Shown here one piece after another: positions 9,001 to 15,000 of a stretch of DNA of 18,450 nt (the stretch's first letter is position 1; each line of letters begins with the position of its first letter). Origin of the DNA: a virus; UHGV virus genome UHGV-1662509. One strand, written 5' to 3'. A program made the position numbers.

Positions 9001-12000
9001 GCGGATCTGCATCAATTGACAAAAAGGTCTGCTGAAATTTCGGTGACTTCGCCAGCTCAGAATAATCCGCGTTAAGAACAGCATCTGCCGCTGCCATTGC
9101 ACTCCGCCCTTGCGCACTGACAGTGGAATGGGTGATCAGGCCTGCCTGGAAAAAATCCGGCATTTTTTTATCGACAGCTTCGGCTGCCAGTGCTGTGGCT
9201 CTTTCCGGCTGCATCCCTGCCGCGATGTATTTTTTCTCCAGCCCGGCGGTCAGCACTTTTCGCAGAGTGACATCACCCAGCTTTTTAGTCACACCGCCTG
9301 CAACCATATCCGGTACAAGCGCACCAATCAGGTTAACCCCTTTCGCTACCCAGACCGCTGAATCATCATATCCTTCAGTCATCGGTGTATTCAGCGCCCG
9401 CTGCGCCCCCGGCGACATCTTGCCAGTCAGCCATTCATCCGAGGCTTTAGCGCCGCCACTGACTGCCTTGCCTGTGACCTTCAGACCTTTACCGACAGTA
9501 TCAGTAACCGCATTTTTTCCATCAGGCAGAGTGTCGATGACCTCATCCGCCCCCTTGCTGCCACCGACAAAAATATCCTGAACAGTTGCGACTCCCGGCA
9601 GCCCCATACGGCTGAACTCATTTAAAATACGTGCCCCTGTTTTTACCGGGCTCTGAATCATCGCATCACCGAGTCCACGGGCCATTTCCCCTGTCCCCCG
9701 GACGGACTGGGCGACACCTTTCCCCATAGTTGGCAATACATCGCCCAAGCTGAACGACGTGCTGTTGTCCTTCCAGCGATTGGGATCGGAGAAAAACACA
9801 TCATAGCTGTCAGTCTCTCCCGGCTGCTGAATGTTCAGGCTGTTGCGGCTCTGGTTGCCAAATTGCGCTTCAGGGCGCTGTTCATCGGAATAAGCCATAC
9901 AGACTCCATAAAAAAACCCGGCACAATGACCGGGTATCAGGAAATAGTATTAACGGGAATGGTGAATTACTGCGCGTAATTCTGTTTCAGACCACGGATA
10001 AACTCAGATGCAGAGGCCGCGCTATCATCCCTGGCCTGTTCCCCCCTGGCCTTTTGAATACGGAGAAAATTCGCATACCCGTGTTCCAGCAATTTCTGAT
10101 TCTGAGGCTCCAGCATTTCTGGCTGACGGGAGGCCACTTCTCTGGCAAATGCCTGCTTATCCGGATCATCACCCGCCCAACTGGTAATCCCTTGTTGAAT
10201 TTTTTGCTGCTGAATTTGCTGCTGATACTGCGGCAGTCCCATCGAAGCATAATATTGCGTCACTGCTCCCTGCGCATCACCGCCGTCCTGTGCAACCTTT
10301 ATCGCTACCTGGCTGGCTCCTTTCTGAAGTTGATCCGCAGAAAGTCCCTGCTGCTTCGGCGTGAAATAGCCGAAATTTTTCGAAATTTCCGCGAATTTAC
10401 TGCGATCCCTGACAAGCTCAACAGCCTTATCAACAGGCACCGCCAGCACGGTTTGATCATCAGGATGTGCACTGCCGTATTCCGTAACGGGTTTATGTGC
10501 TGTAGAGCCATCACTGTATGTGAGATCAAGGCCGATAAGTATGTACCCTTCCTGCTGTGCCGGTACTATACTGCCAATCCTGGCTTCTTTTATCGTCTTT
10601 TTCCCGGTTGAATCGGGCATGCCAACACGCTGTTGCAGTTCCGGGCCAAACACCCCGGAAAGGACATCAAGATTCTCCGGCGTATTAAGTGAAGCGATAG
10701 CCCTGTCTGGCTTGTCATCAAAGATTTTTTGCAGGTTGTTCACGGCCTGACCCGCTTTCGCTACATAGCCATCATTCGCCATCAGCCTCAGCGGATTACC
10801 CTCTGACAACTGGCCGTAAAGACGCATTGCTGCATCCCGATCGCCAGCATCCACAGCCTTTCCAAGCGCCGCCATCACAGGCTGATCGCGCGCCAGCATA
10901 TCGTTATACTCAAGCCGTCGCTGGTTGTATTTCTGCATCCGGAGTCGCTGCTGCTCCATACCCAGCGACGCATTCCGGTAATTCTGGTTGGCGTTAAACT
11001 CCCTTTCCTGCAGTGCATAATTACGGTCGTCGACTTTGGCTCTGTAATCAAAGTTCCGCTGATCAACGTCTTTATTATGTTCAAACTGCGACTGTGCAAA
11101 TTCAAAATCGCGCTCGTTATTTTTCTGTTGTTGAGCAAGCTGTGCTTCTCGCAAACCAAGTTCCTTACGACGGGTCATTGCCTGGTCAACCGTGCTGAAT
11201 CCGGCAAGTAAACCCTGTGCAAATCCGCTCATTCACCACTCCTTAAAACAAAGAACCAGCAATACCACCTATGACAGCACCAATAGCCGCACCGGGGAGA
11301 CCACCAACAGCAGCGCCCATAGCTGCACCCGTACCAATTCCCGTGCCGATATTCTGTTTGTTCTGTGCTTTCTGTTGCGCCGCCATCATCTTGTTTGACG
11401 CCTCAATTTCTTCACGTCGTCTGTCTGCATCACTTATTCCCTGTAATGCCTCACGCCGCGACTGATTCGCAATATCCAGTAAACCGTATCCCATATTGCC
11501 CCCTTACGCTGACACCAGTTTTCCGCCAACACTCAGTTGTTGTCTTGCAGGTGCAGAAGCCCCCGTCAGTATGTTCATCTGGCGATCCTGCTCTGCTTCA
11601 CGGATACCATTTTTCGCGCCAGCAATTGCCAGAGCATTACGCAAACCCAGTGTGTTACTGTTGGGATTATCCGGGCGGCTTACCCCGTATCTCGCCATCT
11701 GGTTATCCTGCGCCATCTGCGCTGTACGGAGACTGGAAGTGGCAAGGCCGCCCACTCGGGCAAGCTGTGCATTCATCAGGCTGTTGTTCTCGCCAAGGTC
11801 AGCCAGCCTTGCCACGCGGGGCAAATATCTGGTTCGCCAGTCGTCGTATTGTTGGCGTGTCAGCGCTGCTGACGTCTGCCAGTCACCCTGTGGACGGGCA
11901 GCTCCGGTATAACCGTATCTCGCAAGTGTTTCGTATTTACCGTACTCCATAATCACAGTCTCCAGTTCTGAGCCTGATGCTGAATGGCATTAGCGCCGGT

Positions 12001-15000
12001 GCCAGGTGTTTTAGCACCGCCACTTCCTCCGCTACCGCCAGCCTTATACATCGCATATGCACCTACCGCACCCAAACCAGCGCCAACAAGAGAGGCTCGC
12101 CCCTGCTGTTTCGTAAACGCAGCCTGTGCGTCCGATTTAGCTTTTGCCAGACTGCTGTCTGCCAGCGAGTTAAAACTCTGTAACGCATCCGCCTTTTGAC
12201 CAGAACCGAGAGCAGCAACATCCTGTAGCCCGGCAACATACTTATCTGCCTGCGATACCTGCCCCCGTGTGGTTGTGTCAATCTGCCCGGTTACCTGATC
12301 ACTCTGGTTCGCATTCATTACCGCGTTAAAGCGACCACTGGACGGGTCAACACCGGACTGAGCAAGATTACCCGCCAGCTCCTTCCGTGCTTCGCCAAAC
12401 TGTTTCTGATACCCCAGATTTGTGGTGCCAGCAATATTGTCGTACTGCTGCTCACTGTTCAGGTCATCGACCTTTTCCATGAAGTTATCTTCAGCCGGGC
12501 GGAGGATTTTTTGATAATCCTGCCACCCTTTCCAGGCCACTTCTTCCTGTGCTATTTGCGCTGCTGTTGGTTTTACTTTGGTATCACCACCGCCTTTTTT
12601 TCCGCCCATTATGGCCCCCTGGATAACAAAAAACCCTGCCGGGGCAGGGTCAGAATGTGAATTGCAATTGGTTTACACACGATAATGAATACAGTGGCAG
12701 TCAGACCGCTATCCTGAACACCATGAAGCCATCCTCATCATCCGGCATTCGCTCAAAGCCCAGACGTTTTCCCAGCCGGATAAATCCCCGTCTTGCCGTA
12801 TGGAATTCAGCCCAGCGTCCGCCAGCCAGACGGGTTAATGTCTTCACCTCCGGCAGATAACGCTCAACGCTGTTACTCCCCGTACACACGCCCAGCAACA
12901 CCAGAACATAAGGGATACCGTCGTCACTGAGCACAGCACGCAGCACCAGAAAACCATCCGGTGCCTCAAAGCAAAACGCCTGCTTTTTAAGGCAGGCGTC
13001 TTTAACTTCATTCATAAATTCAGGGTTGCGGGAATTTCTCACAACACGCTGCATATACCGGAGAATTTTGTCGTCCATTCTCTCACCAGAAACGGGTGCC
13101 ATATCGGCTGAACCTCAGCAACCAGTTGACGGGGACTTTCGTCCCCGTCGCGGTTTTCCTACTGCTTACACTGTAAGAACGCCGCAAACTCCGCTCCCCA
13201 CAAATTCAGCCGGAACTCACACAACGAGCCGTGTAACATCCAGATGGTGAAGATTACCGTCATACAAATTGTGACGGTGATGAGCGATTTTTGCGACATA
13301 GCGCTTGCCTCCTGAGTGGAGAGGCGCTAACCTTCTACTTGCTTAAGGTATGATGGTTAGGGCCTCGGGTTAAACAAAATGTTTGACTCGGGGCCTTTCC
13401 ACATCAGGCCTTCAGGTTCACCTTCCAGCCATCAGCCGAAAGGCACCCGTGCATAATCTACGATTTTTGCCCTGCACGGGCAACAAAAAACCCGCCATCA
13501 CAGCGGGTTATGACATGTTGTCGGGTATTACTCAGAATTTCAGGCCAATGCCTGCAAATAAACCATCAGTTTTCCAGTCGCCAGAGCCTGAGCTTTCATA
13601 AGTGACGTCCATAGTAACACTTTCATTGAAGTTAAATTGCGCGCCGACAGACCATGCAATAGACGTTTTTTTGGTGCTGTTACTTTCAGAAAAACTACCT
13701 ACACCACCATTAAGATTGTCGTTAACTTTCAAATCATAAGTTACTTTTGCAACCGCAACACCTGCCATTGAATACACACTGAGGTATTCATTAAACCGCC
13801 ACGAAGGACCGGATAGTAGACTCCAGTAATTAGCCCTGATATCAGTTCTCGCTGAAGCTGCCGGTTTTTTTACCTCTCGTGATGGATCGGAAGGCTTAAC
13901 ATCAATGAATGCCTGTGCATTAGTCATGGATCGAGCCCATGCAAAAGAGGTTATAACACCGATCTCATCCGTAATCTCATAACGATACTTAATGTTCATT
14001 CCCAAGGGACTTTTCTCTTTACCATCATGGCCCCGGACAAACGCATCGTCATATTCTCCAGGTGAATTGAAATAGTTTTCATTCACAAAATTGTTAAAGG
14101 TATCAAGGTTATGAAGACTTAAATCCTTAACAAAATTATTCAGCCCGGATAACTGAAGGTGAGCGAATCCAAGGGATACGGTACTATCACCAGATGCAGC
14201 ATGTGCCTGTGCAGTTAATCCACCTAAGCCCAGAGTTGCGCACACAAGAAATTTTGTGATACTTTTCATTTTAAGAATCTTCCTATATTAAAAACATTGT
14301 TCTCTCTGTCCTTTCCACATTTTTGATTATTTACCATCCTGCCTGGAAATAAAAAATAAAAATTTTTCTTAAAATGATTGATAAATTTTATTGTGCTAAT
14401 CATACATTGAAGTATTAATAACAAGAACTTTGTCTACATAAGACTTTCGAATATCCCATGTTGCACCACCTGAATAATGCTCACAGGAATATATTTTATT
14501 TCCTGTAGCGCCAGTGGATGTGGTATAAATCGGTCGGTCATAAGGAGTTCTTTTCCAGTTATAATACCCGACCAGTGCAGGCATAATTGCGCATGGATAT
14601 CCAAGGTCCTTTTCAAATTTGATATCAACAGGTATTAACTTCGCGTCAAGCAGCATCATTTCGCCATGGTAAATCATCTCACCCAACGGATTATACATGG
14701 CGATACCATACTCAGAAGGTTGAGTAACCATATTCGCAAAAGCATAAACAGTCGTAACACCAGGATTCGTTCCCCTGACAATTTGATGAAGCCTTAAGGC
14801 ATGATATCCATCAATCTGTTCATGCGTGTACATGACATCGGCCTTCTTCTCTGTTCTGATAAAGAAAAAACAACTTTTTCCTGACGGAATTGACGTTTTA
14901 AAAAAAGCCTTCTCAGTCGCCGGAATAGTTCCCTTATTGATAAGACACTGAGGCGTAAACCCCGGGCTTATCCACAAGCTGCCATCTGGTTTCGTAATGC

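Follow-up and report, generated by a model that had tools for sequence, protein, structure and literature searches.

The systems closest to the locus described here are the ejection (internal virion) proteins of the phages P22, T7 and N4. P22 encodes gp7 (229 amino acids, aa), gp20 (471 aa) and gp16 (609 aa) contiguously after its needle gene, in order of rising size and with spacers of 2-10 nucleotides (nt), and it carries about 12, 30 and 12 copies of them per virion. In T7, gp14, gp15 and gp16, with gp13 before them, are needed for infectivity; together they provide a pore in the outer membrane, a tunnel through the periplasm and an inner-membrane/cytoplasmic hub. N4 encodes gp52 (150 aa), gp51 (644 aa) and the virion RNA polymerase gp50 (3500 aa), a small, a medium and a giant protein, from one strand; gp51 and gp52, each present in 12 copies, are membrane-active proteins of slender, helical shape with less than 10% identity to their DEV counterparts. 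Shiga toxin genes are spread by short-tailed Shiga toxin (Stx) phages, which have to bring their DNA across the E. coli envelope after binding to BamA. We analysed an 18,450-nt stretch of DNA, the virus genome UHGV-1662509 (the window), which is the late region of a 933W/Sp5/phi24B-type short-tailed (Sepvirinae, Stx-type) prophage. Four of its genes, for proteins of 218, 148, 83 and 421 aa, and a gene for a giant protein of 2783 aa quite probably constitute the ejection protein cassette of this type of phage. The genes are known and partly characterised and do not represent a new kind of system, but their functional assignment is new: an assignment of the four small genes to ejection was not found in the searchable literature.

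As in T7, P22 and N4, genes for a protein of about 200 aa, one of about 450 aa and a very large one follow the nozzle and needle genes. The likeness to P22 includes contiguous genes with short spacers, the complete lack of cysteine in the ejection proteins, comparable copy numbers of about 22 (218 aa) and 30 (421 aa), and a cysteine-containing gene of about 130-150 aa in front of both cassettes. Unlike in P22, three small proteins are present instead of one and the cassette ends with a polyvalent protein of 2783 aa instead of the 609-aa gp16; neither the 218-aa nor the 83-aa protein of the window matches Pfam P22_gp7 (PF25688) up to an E value of 10, the 421-aa protein does not match Inj_translocase (PF16928, P22 gp20), and its family has no detectable similarity to gp20. 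With N4, the window shares the succession of cysteine-free small, medium and giant proteins on one strand, the Stx-type capsid protein falls into the N4 gp56 family and forms a T=9 head, and the slender, helical shapes predicted for the 421-aa and 218-aa proteins resemble those of gp51 and gp52. However, no sequence or profile similarity to the N4 proteins was found, LPD and MuF_C domains replace the RNA polymerase, two extra small genes are present, and whereas bilayer channel data exist for N4 gp51 and gp52, a channel role of the cassette proteins is predicted from analogy. T7 has the same synteny and size logic, but there is no similarity in sequence or predicted fold, a Pfam scan found no lytic transglycosylase domain in the giant, and no ordered core stack has been reported in phi24B (10.64898/2026.04.10.717836). 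A further comparison is offered by the Bcep22-like phage JC1 (Lessievirus), whose portal, capsid and nozzle proteins are homologous to those of 933W and which encodes gp67 (196 aa), gp68 (510 aa) and the 'DarB-like' giant gp69 (4515 aa) in the order of the cassette, all three of them virion-associated by mass spectrometry; its small proteins are likened to those of the cassette by order and size. The literature on JC1 and on the Dar system of P1 reads such proteins as antirestriction cargo and not as a conduit, and P1, a myovirus, needs no ejectosome.

Evidence for the assignment comes from published work on two close relatives, in which the orthologues of the five genes are ORF76-80 of Sp5 and gp51, gp50, gp49, gp48 and gp47 of phi24B. 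The small proteins have the lengths of Sp5 ORF76-79 (218, 148, 83 and 421 aa) and are 96, 97, 90 and 83% identical to phi24B vb_24B_44 to 47; Sp5 ORF80 is a giant of 2793 aa. A preceding interpretation of the window, made from its sequence alone (the sequence-only reading), had recognised none of the small proteins as a known family, which does not hold, as they are products of conserved Stx-phage genes with published phenotypes. It had also proposed that the five genes form a delivery module of ejection proteins and a giant cargo, and this idea is supported by proteomics, deletions and cysteine benchmarks. All five orthologues were detected in purified phi24B virions, the 83-aa protein weakly, with totals of 523, 129, 13, 1634 and 10962 peptide-spectrum matches for gp51, gp50, gp49, gp48 and gp47, respectively (10.64898/2026.04.10.717836). 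The copies per virion derived in the same work were ~22 for gp51, ~36-40 for gp50 and ~30 for gp48, with the structure-based number given as not determined for each of them, and ~19 for gp47, for which the structure-based number was left blank and which was not seen in the map. The cryo-electron microscopy model of phi24B, with a T=9 head and a 22-nm tail, comprises capsid, cement and decoration proteins, portal, two adaptor rings, nozzle, six fibres and needle. Because gp47 was abundant yet invisible, the authors of the preprint proposed it to be a packaged ejection protein; gp48, gp50 and gp51 go unmentioned in their text. Absence from the atomic model and the undetermined structure-based copy numbers would fit a location inside the head for the small proteins as well.

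In-frame deletions in Sp5 were made by Mondal et al. (2016). Deletion of ORF79 or ORF80 abolished the formation of plaques and of lysogens, was complemented in trans, and left DNase-resistant DNA at the wild-type level in normal-looking heads, and phages deleted for ORF76 were still infectious, with strongly reduced infectivity (PMC5155283). Deletion of each gene had been proposed as a check in the sequence-only reading. A loss of infectivity without an effect on packaging is thus documented for the 421-aa protein and the giant and in part for the 218-aa protein; it is not found for the 148-aa and 83-aa proteins.

The second line of evidence is the near-absence of cysteine. The cysteine counts of the 218-, 150- (when translated from the GTG codon discussed below), 83- and 421-aa proteins and the giant are 0, 0, 0, 0 and 1, i.e. 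one in 3655 residues as initially described, and no other long stretch of the late region is free of cysteine, which makes the block an outlier as had been suspected. The other seven open reading frames (ORFs) of the window contain 21 cysteines in 1947 residues (1.08%), and against this background the binomial probability of at most one cysteine is 2.5e-16 for the five proteins and that of none is 7.8e-5 for the four small proteins alone. The single cysteine of the giant, C629, is encoded by TGC at 8012-8014 (codon 629, minus strand), where a 99.5%-identical E. coli prophage (NZ_AP045820) has CGC for arginine; it is one of three differences between the two giants in 2783 residues, and the giants of NZ_AP045820 and of phage 75/02 contain no cysteine. 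Arginine at position 629 in the relative indicates that the ancestral giant was cysteine-free, and sequence comparison thus identifies C629 as a recent arginine-to-cysteine change. All five proteins are devoid of cysteine in each of six distant modules described below, so that the seven syntenic modules together have 1 cysteine in 23,001 residues, compared to 126 in 13,762 (0.92%) in flanking genes. In a 48-member alignment of the 421-aa family, 3 cysteines occur in 22,456 residues, all three in one sequence. Chance or composition as cause of the deficit is ruled out by the binomial test together with the conservation across modules.

As benchmarks, P22 gp7, gp20 and gp16 contain 0 cysteines in 1309 residues, T7 gp14, gp15 and gp16 1 in 2261, and N4 gp52, gp51 and gp50 0 in 4294, compared to 0.5-2.7% in genes next to these cassettes and 0.5-1.5% in tail proteins; the genes directly preceding the cassettes encode P22 gp14 with 2.65% and T7 gp13 with 2.2% cysteine. 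The near-absence of cysteine is a hallmark measured empirically here and not a published definition. The word 'cysteine' was absent from the main open-access papers on ejection proteins that we searched, so the hallmark seems not to be commonly stated, though it may be noted elsewhere. Other late proteins of this phage without cysteine are the needle/tip fibre (424 aa), a cement-like protein of 129 aa and a gp70-like protein of 335 aa, and the P22 scaffold, the P22 needle and T7 gp9 also lack it. A common constraint may act on proteins that exit via pores in the capsid and on those that are shed during infection.

A first homologue search returned exclusively proteins with at least 74% identity, and a search for the locus with a narrow alignment found only close E. 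coli prophages, whereas a full HMMER scan detected members of the 421-aa family that fall into 71 clusters at 50% identity. We compared the window with six modules at 22-39% identity, from Vibrio phage 1.205.O, four prophages in assembled NCBI genomes and one Logan-assembled contig. The gene order is the same in each, with products of about 130, about 210, about 125, about 85 and about 460 aa followed by a giant of 2000-3100 aa, which carries an LPD domain where one was detected. The members in the Vibrio phage pair one-to-one with those of the window by BLASTP (E values of 3e-13, 5e-4, 7e-8, 6e-13 and 0), and its V15 is a homologue of the 133-aa protein encoded just upstream of the cassette (E 2e-6). 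From these comparisons, the cassette is ancient and has retained its order.

A direct connection to a known ejection protein is provided by P0143 (L060:10001-14161), a cysteine-free fusion protein of 1386 aa, one part of which is homologous to residues 1-280 of the 421-aa protein (28% identity, E 2e-21) and another part to residues 136-598 of P22 gp16 (36% identity, E 2e-77, BLASTP). This natural fusion indicates that the N-terminal domain of the 421-aa protein belongs to the ejection machinery. The island encoding P0143 also contains genes for an integrase, AlpA, Bro-N and a D5/DUF927-type primase and resembles a phage satellite more than a complete phage; a satellite with its own ejection protein would be of interest in itself.

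The 421-aa protein was predicted by AlphaFold2 (48 sequences, predicted local distance difference test (pLDDT) 83.5) to begin with one helix of about 19 nm formed by residues 4-128. This helix leads into a helical region and then a small beta domain (213-266), and the C-terminal part is again predicted as helices. Coiled-coil segments had been described for the cassette proteins before, and this 125-residue single helix is their sole support; the Ala/Gly/Gln-rich compositions were described exactly. Comparison of the family with gp20, gp51 and gp15 by hhalign gave probabilities below 1% each, no PDB profile matched the protein, and Foldseek returned nothing at E < 0.001. By analogy with gp20, gp15 and gp51 in position and size, we propose the 421-aa protein as a candidate subunit of a periplasm-spanning tunnel.

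The 83-aa protein consists of a polar helix and a C-terminal glycine-zipper membrane helix ending in GSLF, as had been correctly noted for its C-terminus, with a hydropathy peak of 1.71 at residues 61-79. Its family can be aligned over the ~85 C-terminal residues of gp7, as far as the common end ...PWGAxIGxGxGxxGSLF, and hhalign gave a probability of 95.6% (E 1.1e-8) for a short match of 34 compositionally biased columns that reaches the last residue. The homologue from the Vibrio phage reached a Smith-Waterman z value of 12 against gp7 and 18.2 bits (E 0.0024, profile positions 154-230) against Pfam P22_gp7, and sub-threshold matches to this profile (gathering threshold 28 bits) were obtained for four of seven family members. 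BLASTP and shuffled Smith-Waterman comparisons of the cassette with P22, T7 and N4 proteins were otherwise non-significant, and homology to gp7 is plausible only for the C-terminal module of the 83-aa family, which is short. Pfam Gly-zipper_YMGG (PF13441) scored 26.7 bits (E 4.6e-6, threshold 28.9 bits) on the 83-aa protein. More generally, when the four small proteins were scanned against Pfam, PHROGs and NCBIfam, only families of 'unknown function' and glycine-zipper noise were returned, and sequence and profile searches of the PDB gave no match for them.

In the 218-aa protein, a GGKKGGG motif is present at the N-terminus and a hydrophobic segment rich in Gly around residues 172-192. Its family has the size of gp7, aligns with it end to end, has the C-terminal Gly-rich hydrophobic segment in common with it and starts with GGKGG as gp7 does after loss of its first 20 residues, whereas the C-terminal zipper of gp7 ending in GSLF has its counterpart in the 83-aa family. 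AlphaFold2 predicted four long helices and an all-helical protein with low confidence (pLDDT 48.8), which is too poor for a fold search. We propose that the 218-aa protein is a membrane-active ejection protein resembling gp7 and T7 gp14. An hhalign match between the families (E 1.3e-4, probability 53%) points to a possible paralogy of the 148-aa protein with the first two-thirds of the 218-aa protein.

The giant carries four Pfam domains above threshold, LPD38 (162 bits), LPD5 (147 bits), LPD1 (81 bits) and MuF_C (64 bits), as well as hydrophobic segments at residues 181-199 and 2435-2457. With several LPD/effector domains and a gene located among virion genes, it corresponds to the definition of polyvalent proteins, which are predicted to be packaged and injected cargo (Iyer et al., 2017). 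It matches the PHROG 'DarB-like antirestriction' and stands where gp16 is encoded in other cassettes, or the virion RNA polymerase in that of N4. The MuF_C domain at residues ~1740-1829 was read as a metallopeptidase that may cut peptidoglycan in the phi24B preprint (10.64898/2026.04.10.717836), and as a PBECR (RNase-like) domain by Iyer et al. (2017); a Pfam scan found no peptidoglycan hydrolase domain in the cassette.

Taken as an ejectosome, the cassette might work as follows. The proteins would be packaged in tens of copies in the T=9 head, where a genome of 57.7 kb should leave room for several MDa of protein, given that N4 has a genome of 70 kb. Upon loss of the needle at the receptor, they would be expelled through portal and nozzle, largely unfolded and ahead of or together with the DNA, and would refold in the envelope into a conduit that extends beyond the reach of the 22-nm tail. 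The glycine-zipper proteins of 218 and 83 aa would exit first and insert into the outer membrane, comparable to gp7, T7 gp14 and N4 gp52, while the 421-aa protein with its helix of about 19 nm would oligomerise to a periplasmic tunnel, comparable to gp20, T7 gp15 and N4 gp51. The 148-aa protein would be an accessory derived from the same ancestor as the 218-aa protein. The giant would follow, like gp16 in T7 and the virion RNA polymerase in N4, aid the crossing of the inner membrane with its own hydrophobic segments and bring its LPD5, LPD1, MuF_C and LPD38 effector domains into the cytoplasm. Lack of cysteine would be selected because the proteins travel through a narrow channel in unfolded form and fold again in the oxidising, DsbA-containing periplasm, where stray disulfides would do harm. 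A far-reaching version of this proposal, which we put forward only tentatively and consider somewhat less likely to be right than wrong, is that near-total absence of cysteine is a general, selected mark of every podovirus protein pushed through portal and tail into the periplasm and could serve as a predictor from sequence only. In this phage, it would mark a five-component ejectosome in which three small proteins share the job of gp7, a polyvalent effector of 300 kDa is delivered in about 20 copies, and the tunnel belongs to a family without detectable solved relatives.

A number of observations weigh against an ejection role. Presence in the virion, absence from the ordered structure, deletion phenotypes, synteny and lack of cysteine are established, whereas ejection and the positions in a conduit, including the exit from the capsid and the arrival at the envelope, are what we infer for all five proteins. 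Zero cysteine in a single protein is unspecific, as the needle, the cement protein, the gp70-like protein and the major capsid protein of N4 have none either. The gp7 match of the 83-aa family covers 34 compositionally biased columns, and the profile match between the 218-aa family and gp7 is not significant (hhalign probability 3-7%). Ejection-protein mutants of P22 give normal-looking tailed particles. In contrast, the ORF79 and ORF80 mutants of Sp5 bound no anti-tail-fibre antibody, a result for which the data were not shown, and ORF77 (148 aa) and ORF78 (83 aa) were dispensable in the laboratory (PMC5155283). In phi24B, the 83-aa protein, listed as 'gp49 E. coli bacteriocin', was represented by 13 spectra only and filed as probable contamination (10.64898/2026.04.10.717836).

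From the antibody result, the Sp5 authors named ORF79 and ORF80 'tail formation' genes, i.e. their products would be assembly factors or structural tail proteins that stabilise the tail on filled heads. The mutants' packaged DNA, their normal heads and the lack of detectable antibody binding agree with such a function, as does the location of the genes in the neighbourhood of tail genes. However, the complete tail of phi24B was modelled without these proteins although they are at least as abundant as the fibres, the immuno-electron microscopy result is a negative one that was not shown, and a tail function leaves unexplained both the glycine-zipper helices and the lack of cysteine, which makes up 0.15-2.7% of the genuine tail proteins of the same phage. 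We consider a tail function quite improbable. Less improbable, though still unlikely, is that the small proteins are a loading or chaperone set that recruits the giant into the procapsid and holds it there, like Hdf, DarA and DdrA do for DarB of P1, in which case there would be no trans-envelope channel and DNA would enter with the help of the tail and the giant alone. The LPD domains and the 'DarB-like antirestriction' match of the giant, the prediction that polyvalent proteins are packaged cargo and the analogy to P1 Dar drawn by the authors of the JC1 study all point in this direction; in addition, the four small proteins were counted as virion-internal with an abundance near that of the giant, and deletions of the 421-aa protein and of the giant have one and the same phenotype. 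Yet a loading set has no need to be free of cysteine, and all four proteins are so over seven divergent modules. Two of them have glycine-zipper membrane helices, one of which is common to P22 gp7, the N-terminal domain of the 421-aa family was found fused to a gp16-type ejection protein and not to a polyvalent protein, and a podovirus with a 22-nm tail needs an extension that spans the envelope. Loading and ejection are mutually compatible roles.

For the 83-aa gene on its own, the RefSeq name and a Pfam Bacteriocin_IIc match (PF10439, E 0.0011) suggest a bacteriocin or membrane-toxic moron, the virion detection of which would be a contamination, as the phi24B authors filed it, in line with its dispensability in Sp5. 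The match reaches 19.3 bits with a cut-off of 27.1 and covers the glycine zipper only, and the sequence contains neither a double-glycine leader nor a signal peptide. Moreover, the slot between the genes for ~130 and ~450 aa is retained in all seven modules with a cysteine-free product, the C-terminus matches P22 gp7 to the last residue, and trypsin-based mass spectrometry must undercount the protein because neither Lys nor Arg occurs in its last 37 residues. This makes a bacteriocin the least likely of the alternatives, and highly unlikely in absolute terms. The sequence-only reading had additionally named substrates of type I or type III secretion systems as a possibility, for which there is no support, since the context is wholly that of a phage virion module.

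An ejection protein cassette thus remains our preferred assignment, and to a phage specialist it should appear reasonable rather than surprising. It reconciles the genetics of Sp5 with the proteomics and cryo-electron microscopy of phi24B and, by treating ORF76-80 (gp51-gp47) as one cassette, provides a testable role for genes named hypothetical, 'bacteriocin', 'transcription factor?' or 'tail formation'. The conserved module can be recognised in prophages of Salmonella, Aeromonas, Serratia and Yersinia and in marine Vibrio phages, and two markers for diverged ejection proteins emerge from the comparison, freedom from cysteine and a C-terminal glycine zipper ending in GSLF.

The features of the locus are listed in Table 1. 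The four ORFs have the coordinates and lengths originally reported, with 150 aa for the second one when translated from GTG. An ATG codon 6 nt further on, at 11950, has a GGAG motif 9 nt upstream, the gene is annotated from this codon (148 aa) in phi24B and Sp5 as well as in RefSeq E. coli, and the alignment to PHROG 596 covers residues 3-150 of the GTG-started form. Taken together, motif, annotation and alignment span make a gap of +2 nt between the first two genes more likely than the 4-nt overlap described before, which exists only with the GTG start; the following gaps of 9 and 10 nt were correct. The four genes are therefore tightly packed, but the giant gene, which they had been said to lead into as an operon, is merely close and not coupled, being separated by a 68-nt spacer with a hairpin. 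Late operons of lambdoid phages have terminators of this kind that are read through by Q-antiterminated transcription, and by analogy the hairpin upstream of the 218-aa gene is presumably passed in the same way.

Table 1. Positions of the cassette genes and of neighbouring features in the window.
Feature	Position	Strand	Remark
Terminator-like GC hairpin with T run	12632..12651	-	directly upstream of 218-aa gene
218-aa protein, 0 Cys (Sp5 ORF76, phi24B gp51)	11953..12609	-	ORF call, phi24B match
148-aa protein, 0 Cys (Sp5 ORF77, phi24B gp50)	11504..11950	-	150 aa if started at GTG at 11956
83-aa protein, 0 Cys (Sp5 ORF78, phi24B 'gp49 bacteriocin')	11243..11494	-	ORF call, phi24B match
421-aa protein, 0 Cys (Sp5 ORF79, phi24B gp48)	9967..11232	-	ORF call, phi24B match
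Terminator-like hairpin	9916..9935	-	inside 68-nt spacer between 421-aa gene and giant gene
2783-aa giant polyvalent protein (Sp5 ORF80, phi24B gp47)	1547..9898	-	last and largest member of the cassette
133-aa Cys-containing protein	12701..13102	-	kept just upstream of the cassette
46-aa Hok/Gef-type toxin ORF	13159-13299	-	
Ail/Lom gene	13532-14269		in low-GC island
Low-GC island	~13500-15000		
Needle/tip fibre, 424 aa, 0 Cys	15315-16589	-	
303-aa ORF	234-1145	+	left end

Every long ORF between 1547 and 18211 is on the minus strand. The neighbouring late genes encode terminase, portal, the N4-gp56-type capsid protein, adaptors, tail fibre and nozzle (a 541-aa ORF), followed by the needle/tip fibre, Lom and Hok and then by the cassette with the giant, annotated as 'LPD5 domain-containing protein'. 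The cassette block matches 186 phage records at 80-95% identity, nearly all of them Sepvirinae Stx-converting phages, and is also present in 424 of 5426 complete E. coli genomes. The 133-aa protein keeps its position upstream of the cassette in the distant modules and contains cysteine. It was not detected in phi24B virions (10.64898/2026.04.10.717836), its deletion in Sp5 had no phenotype (PMC5155283), and it has no detectable similarity to P22 gp14 or T7 gp13. With low confidence, and by analogy of position, it may be a non-virion assembly factor equivalent to these two proteins.

Between the needle gene and the cassette, an island with a G+C content of 38-39%, compared to about 52-55% around it, contains the Ail/Lom gene and a 208-aa gene, and the dip extends to a 93-aa gene; the island resembles a moron-type insertion. 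Lom and the 133-aa gene are separated by 429 nt, within which lies a Hok/Gef-type toxin ORF of 46 aa (MSQKSLITVTICMTVIFTIWMLHGSLCEFRLNLWGAEFAAFLQCKQ) that is annotated as Hok/Gef or MokW-like in relatives. An Rfam scan of the window found no family above threshold, Sok included. The left end of the window carries a 303-aa ORF on the plus strand, and in relatives the left flank of the giant gene is formed by Ea22-like, DUF551 and ClpX-zinc-finger genes of the opposite arm of the prophage.

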